NCBI RefSeq assembly: GCF_036507355.1
Contig: NZ_AP027877.1
Length of the DNA stretch: 64,000 nt
Reading direction: 5' to 3' (one strand)
Source of the DNA: Escherichia coli
GTDB lineage: Bacteria > Pseudomonadota > Gammaproteobacteria > Enterobacterales > Enterobacteriaceae
Position 1 is the first letter of the stretch, and each line of letters opens with the position of its first letter. Shown piece after piece: positions 3,894 through 51,656 of this stretch. A program made the position numbers and the translations under genes. The notes beneath the pieces were generated by a model. That model did not search any database, was not told where the DNA came from, and saw only the letters and a program-made list of their open reading frames with translations.

Positions 3894-6284
<2,391 letters not shown>

Positions 6285-17163: not shown

Positions 17164-18810
17164 TTATTCAATCTCTTCACAGGCATCCTGAGTTAACCGC
17201 CGCATAATATCTTTTCTTAACAAAAACTTTTGTATTTTACCTGAGGCAGTGCGCGGTAGTTTTTCGATTACCACGATATGTTCAGGATATTTATATTTTG
17301 CGACCCGTTTACGGCTAAAAAAAGCCACCACCTCTTCCAGCGATAATGAATGATGCGGCGCTTTCAGCACGACATAAGCGCATGATCGTTCACCTAAACG
17401 TTCATCGGGCATTGCAACCACACAGGCATCGTGAATTTTAGGATGCTGCAATAAAATATCTTCCACTTCACGGCTGCTAATATTTTCGCCGCCGCGGACA
17501 ATAATATCTTTTTTGCGTCCGGTAATTTTTATATAGCCAGCCTCATCCATGCGGCAGAGATCGCCGCTGTAATACCAGCCTTCTTCATCCAGGGCACGGG
17601 CGGTTAATTCAGGTTCATCAAAATACCCCATAAACACATTGGGGCCACGCGAGGCTTCTTCACCTTCGCAACCTGGCGGTAAGGTCTTGCGTGCGTCATC
17701 GACCACTTTAATCTCTACACCTGCGGCAGCGTAACCATCGGTGTGCATAAAGCGCGACAAAGGATCATCGAGATTCACCACCGCATGCGGCGAACTTTCT
17801 GTGGAACCATAAACACTTAATAATTTAATGCCGCGCTGCTGGCATTCACGTGCCACTTTTTTGGGGATTGTGGTACCGCCGCAAAGAAAGAAACGCAGCG
17901 CTGAAAGGTCTGCGGGCTGTTTCTCTAGTAAATTCAAAAGATCATAGACAAACGGCGTTGCGCCGAGCATACAGGTGCAACGCTGCTGCTCAAGCAGCGC
18001 GAGACACGCATCAGGAGTGAAAATATCTAACAACACGCTGCGAGCGCCAATTAAGAATGGTGCCGTTACGCCATGCAGAAAGCCCGTTGCGTGACCAAGT
18101 GGCGCAGGCATCATAAAGACATCCTGCCAGGTCAGATTCAGCCGCGCGCAATAAGCTCGCTCACTGGCGAGAATATTGTTATGCGTTAGCATCACGCCCT
18201 TTGGCAGGCCCTCGGTTCCGGAGGTAAACAGCACCGCGGCTAATTCATCGCCGTGGGTCGTTATCGCCGTGGTCAGTGGGGTATTGTCGGCGATAATCTG
18301 ACTTAATGAGAGGGAAGAGGTGGCGGGAGCCAGTTTGTCCACGCCGACAATTTGTTGTAGTTGTGGAAGCTGATTTTGCAGCGGCAGGATTAAATCTACC
18401 GGACGCGTTTGTTTAAACAACGTCGGTGCAAAGAACATTTTTGCCTGACACTTATTGAGCACCCACACCAGTTCTGCTTCTCGCCAGGAAGGCAACAACG
18501 GCACGGAAACCGCACCGGTTTTCAGGCAGGCAAGATAGATAACAGTAAATTCACACCAGCCAGGCAGCTGAAAAGCGATGCGATCGCCCGATTCAATACC
18601 GTTAGCCAGTAACCAGCTTGCCAGACAGTTCGCGGCGTGATCGAGTGCGCTATAGGTGTACGATGCACCATGATTATCGACCACGGCAATTTTGTCAGGC
18701 ATCGCACGAGCGGTCTGCTGCCAGTAATCAGCCAGCGAAGCATCGCCCCATAACCCTTGCTGACGATACGCCGCACGACGTTGTTCGTTAAACGTTAATG
18801 TCACTTTCAT
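17164..18810 (-). CDS. fadK: Short-chain acyl-CoA synthetase (anaerobic)
   Basis: 548-aa AMP-binding-family protein; start as given by the track, not independently verified. Confidence 0.85.
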   Translation of the reverse strand: MKVTLTFNEQRRAAYRQQGLWGDASLADYWQQTARAMPDKIAVVDNHGASYTYSALDHAANCLASWLLANGIESGDRIAFQLPGWCEFTVIYLACLKTGAVSVPLLPSWREAELVWVLNKCQAKMFFAPTLFKQTRPVDLILPLQNQLPQLQQIVGVDKLAPATSSLSLSQIIADNTPLTTAITTHGDELAAVLFTSGTEGLPKGVMLTHNNILASERAYCARLNLTWQDVFMMPAPLGHATGFLHGVTAPFLIGARSVLLDIFTPDACLALLEQQRCTCMLGATPFVYDLLNLLEKQPADLSALRFFLCGGTTIPKKVARECQQRGIKLLSVYGSTESSPHAVVNLDDPLSRFMHTDGYAAAGVEIKVVDDARKTLPPGCEGEEASRGPNVFMGYFDEPELTARALDEEGWYYSGDLCRMDEAGYIKITGRKKDIIVRGGENISSREVEDILLQHPKIHDACVVAMPDERLGERSCAYVVLKAPHHSLSLEEVVAFFSRKRVAKYKYPEHIVVIEKLPRTASGKIQKFLLRKDIMRRLTQDACEEIE

Positions 18811-18866
18811 TTTGGACTCTCGAAACAGAACGTCAGGCCCGATGTGCGGGCCTGTGGGATGCGTGA

Positions 18867-19160
18867 TTAGCCGTAACGGAAATCAATACCGAAGGTGCCT
18901 GCGGGGTATTGCCATTGTTCGAGAATAGTGTTGCCACACAGCACCCGACAGGTGCCGCACTCCAGACAACCGGCAGAATCAAAATGAATGTTTCCTGCAT
19001 CATCCTGCTTATACAGTCCGGCAGGGCAGGCTTTCATTAATTTTTGAAATTCTTTGATGTCGGGATTTGCCGCCAGAATGATATGCGGATGGCCCTCATC
19101 AACATGGAATTTATTGACGCCTAATTTGACGTCAACGTTGACCGTAGCGTTCTGGCTCAT
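18867..19160 (-). CDS. ydiT: Ferredoxin-like protein (FixX-like)
   Basis: 97 aa with CxxC/CGxC pattern; start overlaps the ydiS stop. Confidence 0.85.
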   Translation of the reverse strand: MSQNATVNVDVKLGVNKFHVDEGHPHIILAANPDIKEFQKLMKACPAGLYKQDDAGNIHFDSAGCLECGTCRVLCGNTILEQWQYPAGTFGIDFRYG

Positions 19161-20446
19161 AGCGCGGTTGCTCCCTTAATGCCATCTTTCAGCAGATTGA
19201 TCAGCCCGATTTTCTTCGCATGTCCAAGAATCATTTTTCGTACCGGCTGGTTTGGTTTGCCGTCAATGGTGAACATATCGTTCATGATGTCGGCGACCAT
19301 GCGCGGATACTGACTAAACAGGCGCGGGTTTTCCATCAGCGCCGGGATCTTGCGAAAATGCTGCATATCACGCATGACGCAGCTTTGTTCCAGCTCACGT
19401 TTGTATTGCGCCAGACTGCTGGCGGAGAAATCCGCGCGTTCTTTGGCGGCGATCACCGTTGTGGCGGCAGCCTGAGCCGATGCAATGGCTAAATCCATGC
19501 CGCGGACCGTAAAACCCAAATTCAGGCAGAAGCCTGCGGCGTCACCAACGATCATCACGCCCTCGTTAACCAGTTGTGGCACCATTGCCAGACCGCCTTC
19601 CGGCACCATATGCGCGGAATATTCAAGCAGTTTGCCGCCGCTAATCAGCGGGCGAATGGCGGGGTGTTGTTTAAAATCTTCCAGCATTTGCGGCACGCTT
19701 TTTTGCGCATGGGCGATATCACCCAATCCACAAACCAGCCCCAACGATATGGAATCCTTATTGGTATAGAGGAATCCGCCACCCATCAGACCGTCAGAAG
19801 GGGAACCGGCAAACAGCCAGGCGGCACCTTCCTCGCCCGTAATATTAAAGCGATCGTTGATCTGTTCTGGTGTAAGGCCAATAACCTCTTTAACACCAAC
19901 AGCGTAATGATGCGGATCGGAAGCGGGAACCATTCCCAGCGAGCGGCCAAGCATCGAGTTAACGCCATCAGCCAGAATCACCACATTCGCTTCGAGAATA
20001 TCATCCCCAGCCTGCACGCCAGTGACCTTGTTTCCTTCACGAACCAGCGCATCGACGCGAACGCCTGGGATAAACTGCGCGCCCGCCTGCTCGGCTTGTT
20101 CCATCAACCACGGGTCCAGACGATTACGCAATACGGTATAAGATGCGTGTTGCGGAACATCTGGTTGCTCGCGGTGAAAATCGAGGGTAACGGCGCTTTC
20201 TTCGGTTAAGAAGGAGATTTTCTCGCGTGTGACCTTGCGTTCTACCGGCGCTGATACTGCAAAGCCTGGAATGATTGCTTCAAGTGTGTGGGCATAAAGA
20301 CGCCCGCCGGTCATGTTTTTACATCCGGCACTGTCGCCGCGTTCTATCACCAGGACATCCAGCCCGGCACGCGCCATGACCAGTGCGGCAACGCTACCAG
20401 CAACGCCCGCACCGACCACAATGGCATCAAATTTGTCATCCGACAT
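19157..20446 (-). CDS. ydiS: FAD-dependent ETF-quinone oxidoreductase-like (FixC-like)
   Basis: 429 aa with N-terminal FAD fold FDAIVVGAGVAGSVAALVMA. Confidence 0.88.
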   Translation of the reverse strand: MSDDKFDAIVVGAGVAGSVAALVMARAGLDVLVIERGDSAGCKNMTGGRLYAHTLEAIIPGFAVSAPVERKVTREKISFLTEESAVTLDFHREQPDVPQHASYTVLRNRLDPWLMEQAEQAGAQFIPGVRVDALVREGNKVTGVQAGDDILEANVVILADGVNSMLGRSLGMVPASDPHHYAVGVKEVIGLTPEQINDRFNITGEEGAAWLFAGSPSDGLMGGGFLYTNKDSISLGLVCGLGDIAHAQKSVPQMLEDFKQHPAIRPLISGGKLLEYSAHMVPEGGLAMVPQLVNEGVMIVGDAAGFCLNLGFTVRGMDLAIASAQAAATTVIAAKERADFSASSLAQYKRELEQSCVMRDMQHFRKIPALMENPRLFSQYPRMVADIMNDMFTIDGKPNQPVRKMILGHAKKIGLINLLKDGIKGATAL

Positions 20447-22538: not shown

Positions 22539-23450
22539 ATGTATCAACGCTGTTTTGATAATGCCAGTGAAACGCTGTTTGTCGCCGGTAAAACGCCACG
22601 GCTTTCACGTTTTGCATTTAGCGATGATCCAAAATGGGAGTCTGGACATCACGTTCATGACAATGAAACCGAGCTGATTTACGTCAAGAAAGGGGTGGCA
22701 AGGTTTACCATCGATTCTTCGTTATATGTCGCGCATGCAGATGATATAGTGGTGATAGAACGCGGCAGGCTGCATGCGGTGGCCTCTGACGTTAACGATC
22801 CGGCAACGACGTGTACCTGTGCGCTGTACGGCTTTCAGTTTCAGGGGGCTGAGGAAAATCATCTACTGCAACCGCATTCTTGTCCGGTAATTGCCGCGGG
22901 GCAGGGAAAAGAAGTCATTAAAACCTTATTTAATGAGCTAAGTGTGATTTTGCCGCAAAGTAAAAATAGCCAAACATCTTCGTTATGGGATGCATTTACC
23001 TATACATTAGCAATTCTTTACTACGAAAACTTTAAAAATGCTTATCGTTCGGAGCAGGGGTATATTAAAAAAGATGTTCTGATAAAAGATATTCTTTTCT
23101 ATCTGAATAATAATTATCGCGAAAAAATCACTTTAGAACAGTTATCGAAAAAATTTCGTGCCAGCGTCAGTTATATTTGCCATGAATTTACCAAAGAGTA
23201 TCGTATTTCCCCAATTAACTATGTTATTCAACGGCGTATGACGGAAGCAAAATGGTTACTCACTAATACTGAATTATCACAGGCAGAGATCTCCTGGCGT
23301 GTGGGTTATGAAAATGTCGATCACTTTGGCAAACTGTTTTTGCGCCATGTCGGCTGTTCACCCAGCGATTACCGCAGGCAATTTAAAAACTGTTTTGCGG
23401 AACAAGAAATCCTATCTGAATTTCCTCAACCGGTAAGTCTTGTTGGATAA
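22539..23450 (+). CDS. ydiP: AraC/XylS-family transcriptional regulator
   Basis: 303 aa with C-terminal AraC-type HTH; divergent from ydiQ. Confidence 0.85.
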   Translation: MYQRCFDNASETLFVAGKTPRLSRFAFSDDPKWESGHHVHDNETELIYVKKGVARFTIDSSLYVAHADDIVVIERGRLHAVASDVNDPATTCTCALYGFQFQGAEENHLLQPHSCPVIAAGQGKEVIKTLFNELSVILPQSKNSQTSSLWDAFTYTLAILYYENFKNAYRSEQGYIKKDVLIKDILFYLNNNYREKITLEQLSKKFRASVSYICHEFTKEYRISPINYVIQRRMTEAKWLLTNTELSQAEISWRVGYENVDHFGKLFLRHVGCSPSDYRRQFKNCFAEQEILSEFPQPVSLVG

Positions 23451-23492
23451 ATCTGGCGGCGCAGTTTGTTAAGAAGCTGCGCCGCCTGCAGA

Positions 23493-24644
23493 TTATTTGT
23501 TCTGATAGTCTTTCAGGATCTGCCGACCTGCTACGTAAATCATAATTTCGTCTGTACCGCCGCCGATACGTTCACAACGGACATCACGCCAGAAGCGGGA
23601 GACGCGCGCCTCATCGGTATAGCCCAGACCGCCCATGATTTGAATCGCATCATCAATGACTTCCATTGCGGTACGTGCGCAATACAGTTTTGCCAGCGCC
23701 GCGCTGGTGCGCAGTGACTGATGCTGATCGGCTTGCCATGCCACTTTCAGCACCATGTTGCGCATGTTGTCGATCTTAATCGCCATCAGCGCCAGTTTTT
23801 CCTGGATCATCTGGTTATGCCCAATGGGTTTACCAAAAGCGATACGCTGGTTGGCATAGCGAGCGGCATCTTCAAAGGCACACTCGGCAAAGCCGGTGCT
23901 GCGCGCGGCGTTGATCAGGCGCTCCATCTCAAAGTTGTACATCACATTGAGGAAACCCATTCCTTCTTCGCCCACCATGTCGCTCTCTTCAACTTCCACG
24001 TTGTCGAGATAGACTTCGCAGGTGCTGAGCATATGCCAGCCGATTTTATGCAGCGGGTTAATCTTAATGCCGGGCTTACTGGAGTCGACCCACCACAGGG
24101 TGAAGACTTTTTTGGGATCTTTCGGTTCAGGATCGCGCGCCAGCACCAGCATATACGGGTACTCTTTCGCACCGGTAATAAAGGTTTTCTGTCCGTTGAT
24201 GTAAACCTTGCCGTTTTTACGCGTGTAAGTGGTGGTGGCACTGTTGTTATCTGAGCCAGCACCTGGTTCCGTCAACGCTAGGGCATAGGCGGGGTCGCCG
24301 GTTTCCAGGGTGCTTTCTGCCGTTTTACGTAGCTGCTCTGCAGAACCGAAACGGCGCATACTGTGAATACATTGACCGTTGGTGATCAAAAATGCCGGAG
24401 CACCGCATTTTGACACTTCCATCAGCGCCAGCATCTGGGTGACGTAATCCGCAGGGATACCACCAAATTCTTCCGGCACGCCAAGCATGGAAATACCGTT
24501 ATCCGCCAGTGCCCGCATAAATTCACGCGGGTATGTCCCGTTTTGATCGCAGGTGCGGAAATACTCTTCCGGAAAGTTAGTCGTAATCAGTTCGCGAATA
24601 CTGGCCAGCAGCAGTTCTTGTTCTTCAGTTAAAGAAAAATCCAT
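23493..24644 (-). CDS. ydiO: Acyl-CoA dehydrogenase-family protein
   Basis: 383 aa from MDFSLTEEQELLLASIRELITTNFPEEY...; good RBS (aggagt) upstream; track ORF extends 18 codons. Confidence 0.88.
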   Translation of the reverse strand: MDFSLTEEQELLLASIRELITTNFPEEYFRTCDQNGTYPREFMRALADNGISMLGVPEEFGGIPADYVTQMLALMEVSKCGAPAFLITNGQCIHSMRRFGSAEQLRKTAESTLETGDPAYALALTEPGAGSDNNSATTTYTRKNGKVYINGQKTFITGAKEYPYMLVLARDPEPKDPKKVFTLWWVDSSKPGIKINPLHKIGWHMLSTCEVYLDNVEVEESDMVGEEGMGFLNVMYNFEMERLINAARSTGFAECAFEDAARYANQRIAFGKPIGHNQMIQEKLALMAIKIDNMRNMVLKVAWQADQHQSLRTSAALAKLYCARTAMEVIDDAIQIMGGLGYTDEARVSRFWRDVRCERIGGGTDEIMIYVAGRQILKDYQNK

Positions 24645-45925: not shown

Positions 45926-48675
<2,750 letters not shown>

Positions 48676-48678
48676 GGA

Positions 48679-49326
48679 ATGGGTAAGATGAACCATCAGG
48701 ATGAATTGCCGTTAGCGAAAGTCAGCGAAGTTGACGAGGCGAAGCGGCAATGGTTGCAGGGGATGCGTCACCCCGTTGATACGGTAACCGAACCAGAACC
48801 GGCTGAAATCCTGGCAGAGTTCATTCGCCAGCATTCTGTGGCTGGGCAGCTGGTGGCGCGCGCCGTGTTTCTCTCGCCACCCTATTCAGTTGCAGAAGAG
48901 GAACTGTCAGTTTTGCTGGAAAGCATTAAGCAGAACGGAGACTACGCGGATATCGCTTGTATGACGGGAAGTCAGGATGATTACTATTACTCAACGCAGG
49001 CCATGAGTGAAAACTACGCGGCGATGTCTTTGCAAGTTGTGGAGCAGGACATTTGTCGCGCCATTGCACACGCCGTTCGTTTTGAGTGCCAGACGTATCC
49101 TCGTCCTTACAAAGTCGCCATGCTGATGCAAGCGCCATATTACTTCCAGGAAGCGCAGATTGAAGCCGCGATCGCCGCGATGGATGTTGCACCTGAATAT
49201 GCCGATATACGGCAGGTGGAGTCATCGACGGCGGTGTTGTACTTGTTTAGCGAGCGATTTATGACCTATGGCAAGGCTTATGGCTTATGCGAATGGTTCG
49301 AGGTAGAGCAGTTTCAGAACCCCTGA
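48679..49326 (+). CDS. ydhW: Protein of unknown function
   Basis: 215 aa; position and sequence within the ydhY-T cluster. Confidence 0.8.
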   Translation: MGKMNHQDELPLAKVSEVDEAKRQWLQGMRHPVDTVTEPEPAEILAEFIRQHSVAGQLVARAVFLSPPYSVAEEELSVLLESIKQNGDYADIACMTGSQDDYYYSTQAMSENYAAMSLQVVEQDICRAIAHAVRFECQTYPRPYKVAMLMQAPYYFQEAQIEAAIAAMDVAPEYADIRQVESSTAVLYLFSERFMTYGKAYGLCEWFEVEQFQNP

Positions 49327-49389
49327 AATTTCAGGGAGATGTCATGGATAGGGTGGACAGTTGCAGCCACTGCATTAGGGGATAATCAG

Positions 49390-50058
49390 ATGTCCTTCAC
49401 TCGACGCAAATTTGTTCTGGGGATGGGAACAGTAATCTTTTTTACTGGTTCTGCGTCTTCTCTGTTAGCGAACACGAGGCAAGAAAAGGAAGTTCGGTAT
49501 GCCATGATTCATGACGAGTCACGGTGCAATGGCTGTAATATTTGCGCCCGCGCATGCCGTAAAACTAACCACGTCCCCGCTCAGGGAAGCCGTTTATCGA
49601 TAGCACACATTCCAGTCACCGATAACGACAACGAAACGCAGTATCACTTTTTTCGCCAGTCATGTCAGCACTGCGAAGATGCTCCGTGCATCGACGTATG
49701 CCCGACAGGGGCGTCGTGGCGTGATGAGCAGGGGATCGTGCGGGTAGAAAAATCGCAGTGCATCGGCTGCAGTTATTGCATTGGCGCTTGTCCGTACCAG
49801 GTTCGCTACCTTAACCCTGTCACTAAAGTGGCAGATAAATGTGATTTCTGCGCTGAGTCCCGACTGGCAAAAGGCTTTCCGCCCATTTGCGTCAGCGCCT
49901 GCCCGGAACACGCATTGATCTTTGGTCGCGAAGATAGCCCAGAAATTCAGGCGTGGTTGCAGGATAATAAATACTATCAATATCAGCTACCTGGTGCCGG
50001 GAAACCGCATCTGTATCGCCGGTTCGGTCAACATTTGATTAAAAAGGAAAATGTATGA
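49390..50058 (+). CDS. ydhX: Tat-exported 4Fe-4S ferredoxin-like protein
   Basis: 222 aa from MSFTRRKFVLGMGT... (twin-arginine-like signal) with four Cys clusters; track ORF extends 17 codons upstream. Confidence 0.85.
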   Translation: MSFTRRKFVLGMGTVIFFTGSASSLLANTRQEKEVRYAMIHDESRCNGCNICARACRKTNHVPAQGSRLSIAHIPVTDNDNETQYHFFRQSCQHCEDAPCIDVCPTGASWRDEQGIVRVEKSQCIGCSYCIGACPYQVRYLNPVTKVADKCDFCAESRLAKGFPPICVSACPEHALIFGREDSPEIQAWLQDNKYYQYQLPGAGKPHLYRRFGQHLIKKENV

Positions 50059-50840
50059 ACCCGTCGCAACATGCTGAACAGTTTCAGAGCCAGTTAGCGA
50101 ACTATGTGCCACAGTTCACTCCCGAATTTTGGCCGGTGTGGTTGATCATTGCCGGAGTATTGCTGGTTGGGATGTGGTTGGTGCTGGGGCTGCACGCCTT
50201 GCTTCGTGCTCGTGGCGTGAAGAAATCAGCCACCGATCATGGTGAGAAGATTTATCTTTACAGCAAAGCGGTCAGATTATGGCACTGGTCGAATGCGTTA
50301 CTCTTTGTATTGTTGCTGGCAAGTGGGCTGATAAATCACTTTGCGATGGTGGGCGCAACTGCGGTTAAAAGTCTGGTTGCGGTGCATGAAGTTTGCGGAT
50401 TTTTGTTACTGGCATGCTGGCTCGGCTTTGTGCTGATCAATGCCGTTGGGGATAATGGTCACCACTATCGCATTCGTCGTCAGGGGTGGCTGGAACGAGC
50501 GGCAAAACAAACGCGATTTTATTTGTTTGGCATTATGCAGGGGGAAGAACATCCTTTCCCGGCAACAACCCAGTCTAAATTTAATCCCTTACAGCAGGTC
50601 GCCTATGTTGGTGTCATGTATGGATTGCTGCCGTTGTTACTATTGACGGGGCTGCTGTGTCTCTATCCGCAAGCCGTGGGAGATGTGTTTCCTGGCGTTA
50701 GATACTGGTTATTGCAGGCGCATTTTGCTCTGGCATTTATAAGCCTCTTTTTTATCTTCGGTCATCTTTATCTTTGCACCACGGGGCGTACGCCACACGA
50801 AACCTTTAAAAGCATGGTCGATGGCTATCACCGGCACTAA
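50055..50840 (+). CDS. ydhU: Membrane cytochrome b-like subunit (PhsC-like)
   Basis: 261-aa polytopic membrane protein; 4-bp overlap with ydhX. Confidence 0.85.
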   Translation: MNPSQHAEQFQSQLANYVPQFTPEFWPVWLIIAGVLLVGMWLVLGLHALLRARGVKKSATDHGEKIYLYSKAVRLWHWSNALLFVLLLASGLINHFAMVGATAVKSLVAVHEVCGFLLLACWLGFVLINAVGDNGHHYRIRRQGWLERAAKQTRFYLFGIMQGEEHPFPATTQSKFNPLQQVAYVGVMYGLLPLLLLTGLLCLYPQAVGDVFPGVRYWLLQAHFALAFISLFFIFGHLYLCTTGRTPHETFKSMVDGYHRH

Positions 50841-50843
50841 CGA

Positions 50844-51656
50844 ATGATCATTACACGAGCAGACCTGCGAGAATGGCGTATCGGAGCGGTGATGTATCGC
50901 TGGTTCCTGCGCCATTTCCCACGCGGCGGTAGTTATGCCGATATTCATCATGCACTGATTGAGGAAGGATATACGGACTGGGCGGAGAGTCTTGTTGAGT
51001 ATGCGTGGAAAAAATGGCTGGCTGATGAAAACTTCGCGCATCAGGAAGTTTCCTCTATGCAAAAACTGGCCACAGACCCCGGAGAGATACCATTTTGCAG
51101 TCAGTTTGCCCGCAGCGACGATCATGCTCGCATCGGCTGTTGTGAGGATAACGCCCGAATCGCAACCGCTGGGTATGCCGCGCAAATTGCGAGTATGGGT
51201 TATAGCGTGCGGATTGGAAGTGTCGGCTTTAACAGTCACATTGGCAGCTCCGGTGAACGCGCACGGGTTGCTGTAACCGGTAATTCTTCGCGGATAAGCA
51301 GCGCTGGAGATAGTAGTCGGATTGCGAATACCGGAATGCGAGTACGCGTTTGTACATTGGGTGAACGATGTCATGTCGCCAGTAATGGTGACCTGGTGCA
51401 AATCGCCAGCTTTGGCGCAAACGCCAGAATTGCCAACAGCGGCGACAATGTACACATCATTGCCAGCGGTGAAAATTCAACGGTAGTGAGCACGGGCGTG
51501 GTCGACTCAATTATTCTCGGGCCAGGGGGCAGCGCCGCACTGGCATATCATGACGGCGAAAGAGTTCGCTTCGCCGTCGCCATTGAAGGTGAAAACAATA
51601 TTCGAGCCGGAGTCCGCTATCGTCTTAATGAACAGCATCAGTTTGTTGAGTGCTGA
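50844..51656 (+). CDS. ydhT: Repeat protein of unknown function (last gene of ydhYVWXUT)
   Basis: 270 aa; the C-terminal two thirds consist of nonapeptide tandem repeats. Confidence 0.85.
   Translation: MIITRADLREWRIGAVMYRWFLRHFPRGGSYADIHHALIEEGYTDWAESLVEYAWKKWLADENFAHQEVSSMQKLATDPGEIPFCSQFARSDDHARIGCCEDNARIATAGYAAQIASMGYSVRIGSVGFNSHIGSSGERARVAVTGNSSRISSAGDSSRIANTGMRVRVCTLGERCHVASNGDLVQIASFGANARIANSGDNVHIIASGENSTVVSTGVVDSIILGPGGSAALAYHDGERVRFAVAIEGENNIRAGVRYRLNEQHQFVEC

Follow-up and report, generated by a model that had tools for sequence, protein, structure and literature searches.

YdhT, encoded at the end of the Escherichia coli ydh operon, is a three-part protein whose predicted repeat solenoid is shared with phage early proteins

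In Escherichia coli K-12, ydhT still counts among the uncharacterised genes, and its product is routinely called a 'subunit' of the anaerobic oxidoreductase YdhV. The locus raises the question of what kind of protein YdhT is and whether this name suits it. We addressed this question in a 64,000-nucleotide stretch of E. coli DNA (hereafter the window) and among the relatives of its ydhT gene. Our literature search found no functional study of ydhT, and one seeming ydhT paper was actually about yhdT/panF. An earlier note on the window had described YdhT as a chain of nonapeptides; it overlooked that the protein has three parts, that a large phage family has the repeat module as well and that the interval it gave overshoots the array at the 3' end.

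The open reading frame at 50844..51656 on the plus strand (270 codons plus stop in the ORF list and translation) is YdhT, a gene also annotated as ydhT in RefSeq E. coli genomes: over residues 2-270 it scores 490.3 bits with the NCBIfam equivalog NF007410, whose cut-off is 300 (E 1.5e-147). Residues 1-16 are kept in orthologues, and this favours the chosen start over Met17. The gene was found in 5417 of 5426 complete E. coli genomes, and its composition is host-like (GC 0.528, GC3 0.49). It had been placed last in a redox-protein operon, and the Pfam matches of the five genes upstream (together 45926..50840, all on the plus strand) bear this out. These genes encode a 4Fe-4S protein with Fer4 families (ydhY, 45926-46552), an AFOR-family enzyme with AFOR_N and AFOR_C (ydhV, 46576-48675), a protein without Pfam match (ydhW, 48679-49326), a second 4Fe-4S protein with Fer4_11 (ydhX, 49339-50058) and a cytochrome b561-type membrane protein with Ni_hydr_CYTB (ydhU, 50055-50840). 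A gap of 3 nt separates the ydhU stop from the ydhT start. A search for YdhW homologues was dominated by Escherichia and Citrobacter and did not lead to operons without ydhT.

The central part of YdhT is an array of 14 nonapeptides (residues 95-220, 51126..51503, plus strand). The earlier note had proposed about 14 tandem units from about residue 95, and its reading of them, from ARIGCCEDN to STVVSTGVV, was correct. Of the interval assigned to the array, 51126-51560, the start holds, 51126 being the first base of codon 95, but the end does not: the array stops at 51503, and 51560 lies in codon 239, 19 codons past the array end and within the C-terminal domain. In E. coli the units run without indel across all 14 and follow the consensus [AVST]-[RHQK]-[IVL]-[ASG]-[SN]-x-G-[DYEN]-x. 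Position 3 is Ile, Val or Leu in 98% of cases, and the Gly at position 7 is near-invariant (13 of the 14 units; at this position unit 1 has Glu in E. coli and Gly in Citrobacter). The periodicity withstood a statistical repeat test: at lag 9 the mean BLOSUM62 self-score of YdhT was +1.28, with z = 11.1 relative to 500 composition-preserving shuffles, lags 18, 27 and 36 gave z = 9.1-10.5, and all remaining lags within 1-39 gave z <= 0.8. The best self-similarity lag was likewise 9, 18 or 27 in 174 of 178 relatives. Tandem Repeats Finder detected no 27-bp repeat in the DNA of ydhT; the repetition is confined to the protein sequence.

An AF2 model of full-length YdhT, built on 16 sequences, reached a pLDDT of 86.9 and predicted one strand per unit, and this agrees, together with the periodicity, with the solenoid or beta-helix fold that had been suggested from the regularity of the units. 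The model and the orthologue conservation place before the array an N-terminal helical head (residues 1-76, 50844..51071, plus strand) with five predicted helices (pLDDT 77-91) and the motif Y-R-W-F-L-R-x-F-P-x-G-G, in which R19, W20, R23, F25, P26, G28 and G29 are invariant. This head corresponds to PF27195 ('YdhT_N'), an assignment taken from precomputed annotation on all homologues, as PF27195 lies outside the Pfam copy scanned here. It is followed by a linker (residues 77-94, 51072..51125, plus strand) that differs in length and sequence between orthologues; in the model, residues 74-83 have a pLDDT below 50 and residues 86-94 form a degenerate first rung with a strand at 87-90. A second degenerate rung lies on the other side of the array (strand at 220-225), so that the count is 14 clear units, or about 16 rungs with both of these. 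A beta cap makes up the C-terminus (residues 221-270, 51504..51653, plus strand); it is the most conserved part family-wide, with the motif L-G-x-G-G ... Y-H-D-G-x-R-x-R-F ... E-G-E-x-x-I-x-A-G-V-x-Y-x-L. In a separate model of residues 203-270 (pLDDT 97.5), the strands are again spaced by 9 residues.

YdhT would therefore consist of a helical head, a floppy linker, a rigid beta-solenoid and a compact beta cap. Within each unit, positions 2-5 would form the strand, with position 3 (Ile/Val/Leu) and position 5 (Ser/Asn) facing the core, and positions 6-9 and 1 an arc with Gly7 as hinge. Odd and even units are unlike in composition and strand length. A coil would comprise about 18 residues, i.e. 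two units, and the array about seven coils of a flattened two-sheet solenoid, resembling an RTX beta-roll minus the Ca2+-binding GGxGxD; the coil length, like the orientation of the side chains, is inferred. The maximum Kyte-Doolittle hydropathy of YdhT is 1.23, with no hydrophobic segment, and judging from its sequence the protein is soluble, with neither signal peptide nor membrane segment. In the local Pfam-A, YdhT gave only noise at E <= 10 (DUF6876 at 0.035, MSSS, Asp_decarbox). Sequence searches of the PDB with full-length and C-terminal profiles gave nothing significant (CyaA at E 0.12, the rest at E >= 0.86).

The solenoid and cap recur in at least 1191 cluster representatives (profile search, E <= 1e-3), most of which match profile positions ~86-269 only. 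YdhT itself matches the PHROGs phrog_4433 (E 2.8e-6, residues 110-270), phrog_18079 and phrog_27197, and a structural search of BFVD also returned phage proteins. The phage proteins of these three PHROGs have the same solenoid and cap behind another N-terminal domain, DUF7666 (PF24703). This head, present in 60 of 124 relatives, gives the dominant architecture, and other phage relatives carry macro or PcfJ-like domains. YdhT has no DUF7666 match at E <= 10, and our literature search found no papers on DUF7666 or PF27195. In ten phage genomes the gene lies in the early, replication or accessory region and never in the tail module: in Edwardsiella phage GF-2 it directly follows an N-like antiterminator, in phiKX1 it comes after an antirepressor, and in BPP-1 it sits in the cI-proximal early operon. 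The family members that can be placed in annotated genomes are thus non-structural phage early proteins. A plasmid search returned only 15 records, mostly non-mobilisable replicons of 40-60 kb, and this rules out a conjugative-plasmid family. Since its architecture can be defined, its fold predicted and its variation clearly placed (see later in the text), the function of this widespread phage early-gene family becomes testable.

The phage proteins closest to YdhT share its YdhT_N head, so that all three domains are homologous. They include GF-2 gp55, a full-length homologue annotated 'collagen-like' (E 4e-59, 33% identity), a protein of Komagataeibacter phage phiKX1 annotated 'ydhT', and proteins on IMG/VR contigs; their genes lie in phage early regions. 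Their arrays comprise 18-23 units, whereas YdhT has 14, and their units, with the consensus A-[RQ]-I-G-S-S-G-x-x, are near-identical (0.67-0.71, against 0.33 in YdhT) and encoded by a 27-bp DNA repeat, present in 20.9 copies in GF-2. The phage heads also keep the cysteine of a W-x-A-C-x-x-G-x-x-W-F motif that the operon clade has lost.

A more distant relative is Bbp36 of Bordetella phage BPP-1. It matches the C-terminal part of YdhT (hhalign probability 93.5, E 2.3e-7, 46 columns) and DUF7666-type YdhT relatives over its full length (E 4e-25). Like YdhT, it has a head, a short-period Gly-containing array and then the homologous beta cap. However, its head is DUF7666-like (C-G-H-G-L-H) instead of YdhT_N, its unit is the octapeptide GTATAGYR instead of a nonapeptide, and it is a phage-borne, non-structural early gene whereas ydhT is chromosomal and embedded in an operon. 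Moreover, its array is a live DNA VNTR, of 24 bp in 13.8 copies and annotated VR2, unlike E. coli ydhT with its lack of a DNA-level repeat. Bbp36 is described as the carrier of 'variable region 2' in the Bordetella phages BPP-1 and BMP-1 (Liu et al. 2004 via PMC2884959), with 9-20 copies of VR2 between isolates and a non-essential gene (PMC2884959). This 20-year-old curiosity is now connected with more than a thousand related protein clusters.

Unit number ranges from 8 to 41 among the relatives. In the DNA, the phage arrays are near-perfect tandem repeats of 27 bp (24 bp in Bbp36), as seen in GF-2, BPP-1 and Pseudomonas phages. In four sister Pseudomonas phages, the arrays have 9, 13, 16 and 16 units, with DY, YQ and NR endings shuffled among them. 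Within arrays, entropy is concentrated at unit positions 2, 8 and 9 (1.4-1.7 bits, compared with <= 0.74 at the others). The phage arrays thus vary in copy number and at these positions, which are predicted to be exposed; they would expand, contract and reshuffle a few dipeptide 'cassettes' at positions 8-9 and position 2. Bordetella phage BPP-1 also has reverse-transcriptase-based diversification. It is conceivable, though we hold it doubtful, that the phage relatives are hypervariable solenoid binders in which 27-bp cassettes would rewrite the exposed edge positions 8, 9 and 2 with an alphabet of Asp, Tyr, Asn, Arg, Trp and Gly, as a recombination-based counterpart to the reverse-transcriptase route. 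Such proteins would carry DUF7666 or DarG-like macro heads early in infection to a variable host target, and YdhT would be a copy turned to host use, its surface frozen by a fixed partner in the YdhV system. If this is true, the phage relatives amount to a class of hypervariable binding proteins that had gone unrecognised.

In the Enterobacterales, ydhT closes ydhYVWX(U)T in every locus with upstream DNA. These loci span at least five genomic neighbourhoods, and the co-linear operon is found in Escherichia, Citrobacter, Limnobaculum, Brenneria, Serratia, Proteus, Symbiopectobacterium and Edwardsiella, the last of which lacks ydhU and retains ydhT. Operon-linked YdhT was seen only in Enterobacterales in a genome scan based on YdhT-specific peptide patterns, which cannot reveal ydhYVWXU operons without ydhT. 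In a neighbour-joining tree of about 110 columns with midpoint rooting, the operon copies form one clade, to which a group of phage proteins is sister, the YdhT_N-type proteins being the nearest outgroup. This topology is suggestive rather than proof of a transfer from phage to host. In an ancestor of the Enterobacterales, a YdhT_N-type copy may have been acquired at the 3' end of ydhYVWXU, apparently in a single event. A recent horizontal acquisition in E. coli is ruled out by the host-like GC and GC3 and by orthologues that track the operon.

After such a capture, repeat turnover would have stopped, and the units would have diverged at the DNA level under purifying selection that includes the exposed positions. 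Identity between units is 0.43-0.78 in phage copies and 0.23-0.35 in operon copies (0.33 in E. coli YdhT). The operon repeats are degenerate and under strong purifying selection: dN/dS is 0.045-0.054 for ydhT, comparable to ydhU and ydhY, and by part it is 0.02-0.05 in the array and 0.28-0.90 in the linker. Eight of the 13 conserved non-Gly columns of the array are at positions 2, 8 or 9, a weak enrichment (binomial p = 0.07). The conserved ladder of residues predicted to be exposed comprises Y111, Q114, R123, R139, R141, N147, R166 and D183. Among the ydhT alleles circulating in E. coli are frameshifted and internally deleted ones, and the gene is thus not indispensable. Rare in-register array deletions also occur among the E. 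coli alleles, including one of 45 residues, or five units, that rules out a rule of indels in multiples of 18 residues. With this history, YdhT may illustrate cleanly how a host operon catches and freezes a hypervariable repeat protein that was once mobile.

Taken together, we think it probable, though far from assured, that YdhT is a phage-derived solenoid that was captured and frozen in the operon as a non-catalytic scaffold accessory to YdhV. It has no redox Pfam domain, no conserved cofactor motif and no targeting segment of the kind expected of an electron-transfer subunit; no Cys/His motif is conserved, and across 16 orthologues every Cys and His position varies. YdhT may thus serve as a scaffold for binding or as an adaptor, its solenoid edges presenting a fixed surface for recognition, and as a lineage-specific cytoplasmic accessory of the YdhV system (a class V WOR) rather than one of its electron-transfer subunits. 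The accessory role is an inference from gene linkage, i.e. conserved gene order only. As the phage homologues cannot serve an AFOR-type enzyme, the binding target of the module need not be a Ydh protein. For a cofactor-less solenoid of phage ancestry, binding-partner and maturation assays are better suited than redox assays, and caution is needed not to count YdhT as an electron-transfer component.

Other readings of the same evidence must be considered. The gene could be a domesticated or hitch-hiking phage gene that keeps a phage-type job, such as interference with another phage or action on a host defence or target, and merely borrows FNR-dependent transcription. The closest relatives of YdhT are indeed phage early genes at positions typical of accessory or anti-defence cargo, some relatives are fused to DarG-like macro domains, and the disrupted alleles of E. 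coli would also fit. In addition, a machine-learning study lists ydhT among the gene clusters that predict infection by one phage, a correlative result only (PMC12579225). However, the operon has moved among at least five chromosomal neighbourhoods with ydhT always along, Edwardsiella dropped ydhU and kept ydhT, and the frozen array differs from the variability expected in an arms race. PADLOC, moreover, gave no match for YdhT or eight relatives, except for the DarG-like macro head of one of them (P0072). We therefore consider this reading unlikely.

We give still less credence to YdhT as a structural subunit of the Ydh respiratory complex, needed stoichiometrically for the assembly or membrane attachment of YdhV, YdhY, YdhX and YdhU. 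The literature does name YdhWXUT as subunits ('operon encoding five additional subunits') (PMC13328260), and strict co-linearity across eight genera and several neighbourhoods, a ydhU-ydhT gap that suggests translational coupling, and selection on the level of ydhU and ydhY speak for it. However, the small-subunit-type partners bear Tat signals and the class is described as periplasm-facing (PMC13328260), whereas in YdhT a cofactor motif, a signal peptide and a membrane segment are all absent. The subunit sets of class V WORs vary across 37 genera (PMC13328260), yet operon-linked YdhT was seen only in Enterobacterales in the pattern-based scan. Furthermore, YdhT changes far faster than the catalytic core (34% against 80% identity between Proteus and E. 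coli), and full-length homologues occur in phages without such an enzyme.

With regard to the fold, the repeats might be a low-complexity or disordered spacer. The array is rich in G, S and A, and a paper on Bbp36 VR2 and Tweety gp54 states that such repeats commonly go with unstructured proteins (PMC2884959). Against this stand the periodic hydrophobic position 3 and the near-invariant Gly7, a pLDDT of 85-97 over the array, the lack of indels over the 14 units in E. coli, and a dN/dS far below that of the true linker (0.3-0.9); a disordered spacer is thus highly improbable.

Among known solenoids, hexapeptide (LbH), pentapeptide and bactofilin (DUF583) beta-helices are rejected by z <= 0.3 at lags 5, 6, 10, 12 and 15 and by the absence of a Pfam match. 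The curli CsgA-type solenoid differs in repeat length and consensus; YdhT has no Sec signal or curli operon, and there is no evidence of amyloid polymerisation. NosD and SufD, beta-helix accessories of redox maturation, are three-faced, unrelated in sequence and paired with ABC-type ATPases, and no such partner gene is encoded with ydhT. The RTX beta-roll of the type of CyaA and MpAFP region IV has a strand of 3 residues, whereas that of YdhT would have 4-5, and YdhT shows no GGxGxD Ca2+ site, T1SS context or sequence relationship with it. The least credible reading of all is an RTX-type Ca2+-binding nonapeptide beta-roll in a secreted or calcium-regulated YdhT, since GG.G.D and its relaxed forms have zero matches, each unit has a single Gly and no conserved Asp ligand, no HemolysinCabind match appears in Pfam even at E 10, and the C-terminus is a folded cap, conserved in the family, where a T1SS signal would be unstructured.

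The ydhT ORF (50844-51656, plus strand) encodes a protein of 270 residues, identified as E. coli YdhT by the NCBIfam equivalog model NF007410 (490 bits, cut-off 300), and of 5426 complete E. coli genomes, 5417 carry the gene, annotated as ydhT. The genes ydhY (4Fe-4S protein), ydhV (AFOR_N and AFOR_C), ydhW (48679-49326), ydhX (4Fe-4S protein) and ydhU (cytochrome b561 type) all lie upstream, with 3 nt between the ydhU stop and the ydhT start, so that ydhT is indeed the terminal gene of a redox operon. The ydhYVWXUT operon is described as FNR-activated (PMC10845959, citing Partridge et al. 2008). YdhV is described as the large subunit, and YdhY as the small one, of a tungsten/molybdenum oxidoreductase of 'class V' with no known activity; enzymes of this class have been found in 37 genera and differ in their additional subunits, and YdhT is named in that source only within 'YdhWXUT' (PMC13328260). 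In the mechanical ORF list, ydhV appears as an ORF of 728 aa (46489-48675) whose start, at 46489, lies within ydhY. A shorter ORF starts at 46576 (MANGWTG...), and this is likely the true start because the AFOR_N match begins at its residue 6. No family in the local copy of Pfam matched YdhW, and a newer family, YdhW_C, exists; the protein evolves nearly as quickly as YdhT does (41% identity between Proteus and E. coli), and its length ranges from 185 to 234 aa among E. coli and Shigella entries.

YdhT has a three-part architecture (helical head and linker, nonapeptide array, C-terminal beta cap). From codon 95, which begins at nt 51126, 14 nonapeptides follow one another, with no indels, up to residue 220 (nt 51503). 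These are the units listed in an earlier note on this DNA, but the end proposed there, 51560, corresponds to codon 239 and falls past the array, in the next domain. The 9-residue period reported in that note passed a statistical repeat test: by BLOSUM62 self-similarity with 500 shuffles, lag 9 gave z = 11.1 and lags 18, 27 and 36 gave z = 9-10.5, the remaining lags being at or below background. The periodicity of YdhT is far beyond chance. Across 16 orthologues, the unit consensus is [AVST]-[RHQK]-[IVL]-[ASG]-[SN]-x-G-[DYEN]-x, with I/V/L at position 3 in 98% of cells and Gly at position 7 in 95%. Tandem Repeats Finder detected no 27-bp DNA repeat in ydhT, and the repeat can be seen solely in the protein. 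None of the Cys or His residues is invariant among the orthologues, and neither a hydrophobic segment nor a signal peptide was found in YdhT. An RTX repeat was rejected, since the GGxGxD motif, even in relaxed form, and any HemolysinCabind match at E <= 10 are both absent; the RTX protein CyaA matches YdhT at E = 0.12.

An AlphaFold2 model of YdhT built on the 16-sequence alignment (mean pLDDT 86.9) comprises five helices within residues 5-76, a linker of low confidence at residues 74-83 (pLDDT <50), one strand of 4-5 residues per nonapeptide from residue 87 to 216 and a beta-rich C-terminus (pLDDT 93-97). When residues 203-270 were modelled independently from 73 diverse sequences, a 9-residue strand spacing was again obtained (pLDDT 97.5). 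The model predicts a strand in every unit, which supports the solenoid or beta-helix suggested in the earlier note, and we regard the structural claim for YdhT as solid. Beta-solenoids built from short repeats are a known kind of fold. Strand lengths alternate in YdhT, odd-numbered units differ from even-numbered ones in composition, and lag 18 is the best self-similarity lag in 75 relatives, which supports two nonapeptides per coil; YdhT would then have about seven coils. Positions 3 and 5 would form the core, 2 and 4 the sheet faces, and 6-9 together with 1 an arc. No relative of the cap, which is better conserved across the family than any other part, was detectable in the PDB.

A word-seeded search returned enterobacterial homologues only, every one carrying YdhT_N, a new Pfam family in which the head domain is already catalogued. 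Profile searches for related nonapeptide-repeat families uncovered a large family sharing array and cap: the exhaustive search gave 1191 cluster representatives with E <= 1e-3, of which 495 reached E <= 1e-10, and most of the 1191 match profile positions ~86-269 only, that is, the array and the C-terminal domain. In 174 of 178 relatives, self-similarity peaks at lag 9, 18 or 27. DUF7666 stands at the N-terminus in 60 of the 124 relatives scanned, and macro or PcfJ-like domains occur in a few. The relatives belong to PHROGs 4433, 18079 and 27197, none with an assigned function; YdhT itself matches phrog_4433 at 2.8e-6, and Foldseek against viral models recovered the same phage proteins. No function is assigned to any family member in the libraries or literature searched. 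A 3263-aa giant in the representative library (P0171) has four stretches that match the array profile of YdhT, and very large multi-array proteins thus contain the nonapeptide as well. In some relatives (P0072, P0107), array and cap are fused to a DarG-like macro domain, with one DarG match of 1.9e-20 in PADLOC, and in Acinetobacter phage fLi-Aba02 the gene under the match (23398-24021) is annotated 'putative ADP-ribosyltransferase'; together, these hint at a link with ADP-ribosylation conflicts.

Full-length homologues including the YdhT_N head were found by tblastn in sequenced phages. Edwardsiella phage GF-2 gp55 aligns with YdhT over its full length (33% identity, E 4e-59), and others are present in Komagataeibacter phage phiKX1, a 23-kb phage contig and an IMG/VR contig. 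Array and cap are homologous to those of many phage early proteins, including Bbp36 of Bordetella phage BPP-1 (bbp36, 4953-5882 of locus L063), which is matched end to end by a DUF7666-type relative (E 4e-25) and whose C-terminus aligns with the YdhT profile (hhalign probability 93.5, E 2.3e-7). The annotated 'variable region 2' (VR2) is the Bbp36 repeat, a 24-bp unit in 13.8 copies encoding GTATAGYR. This unit is an octapeptide, whereas nearly all other family members have 9, 18 or 27 residues; were Bbp36 a solenoid too, each of its coils would have to span 16 residues. VR2 is summarised as a 19-bp repeat combined with any of three 5-bp spacers (PMC2884959, after Liu et al. 2004); the same source gives 9-20 copies by isolate and describes the gene as non-essential, of a role not known and unrelated to tropism. 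In 10 of 10 annotated phage genomes, the neighbours of the family gene are early, replication or accessory genes, and in none is it part of the virion module; in GF-2, it is the first gene 3' of an N-like antiterminator.

Phage arrays vary in copy number and in unit cassettes. Their mean unit identity is 0.43-0.78, making them near-perfect repeats, and GF-2 carries a 27-bp DNA repeat of 20.9 copies with 89% match. The Pseudomonas phages 5399, phi2, P7869 and phi1 (L064-L067) have almost identical heads and caps but 9, 13, 16 and 16 units, in which SAASNTG precedes DY, YQ or NR and the order of these endings is shuffled. The pattern is that of VR2 in nonapeptide form, and these sister phages, which in this gene differ almost solely by the number and order of units, offer a ready natural system for repeat dynamics. 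Within 72 arrays, entropy reaches 1.66 bits at position 8, 1.67 at position 9 and 1.41 at position 2, with other positions at <= 0.74 bits and Gly7 at 0.05; positions 8-9 are mainly D, Y, N, S, G or R. By the strand/arc assignment, positions 2, 8 and 9 are probably exposed and would line the two narrow edges of the solenoid. In a published Serratia symbiotica evolution experiment, a 54-bp (two-unit) in-frame deletion is reported in a 1413-nt 'ydhT_1', at a coordinate that lies within a mitomycin-inducible prophage (PMC12505973).

The enterobacterial copies are strictly linked to the operon and under purifying selection. In all Enterobacterales loci with upstream DNA (Escherichia, Citrobacter including C. 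rodentium, Limnobaculum, Brenneria, Serratia, Proteus, Symbiopectobacterium and Edwardsiella), ydhT is last after ydhYVWXU, except that Edwardsiella has ydhYVWX without ydhU, ydhT still being next. The operon was found in at least five differing neighbourhoods, and the GC and GC3 of ydhT resemble those of the host. Between Proteus and E. coli, identity is 80% for YdhV and 34% for YdhT. Within Escherichia, dN/dS is 0.045-0.054 for ydhT (array 0.02-0.05, cap 0.01-0.05, linker 0.28-0.90). Unit identity in operon copies is just 0.23-0.35. Positions 2, 8 and 9 hold 8 of the 13 conserved non-Gly columns of the array (p = 0.07), a concentration that is suggestive only. Disrupted or shortened alleles occur in E. 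coli at low frequency (P0009, P0036, P0006, P0026, P0029), including in-register deletions that remove 72 residues (8 units) or 45 residues (5 units), frameshift alleles of 197 aa and a 287-aa C-terminal frameshift read-through allele with 169 member sequences.

In a neighbour-joining tree of head and cap, the operon-linked proteins form one clade, whose sister comprises GF-2 gp55 and two phage contigs; a W-x-A-C-x-x-G-x-x-W-F motif is kept in phage heads, and its Cys is lost in the operon clade. We infer a single phage-to-host capture of ydhT, and YdhT may serve the Ydh system as an accessory binding scaffold without a redox role. YdhT and the ydhYVWXUT operon are already catalogued, and the evolutionary link with a phage family was unexpected. 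In the literature and databases searched, the following appear undescribed: a nonapeptide class that differs from RTX, the joining of this class to a conserved cap in more than a thousand clusters, the membership of Bbp36/VR2, the position-specific cassette variability, and the proposed capture of one copy by a respiratory operon in which it became frozen. The unannotated 23-kb entry CP025887.1, filed as 'Escherichia phage 503046', carries ydhT at 18751-19560 with 99.6% identity and looks like chromosomal DNA deposited as phage. In a metagenomic Brenneria-like locus (L009, 8273-10037), an AbiEi/AbiEii toxin-antitoxin (abortive infection) pair is inserted directly 3' of ydhT.
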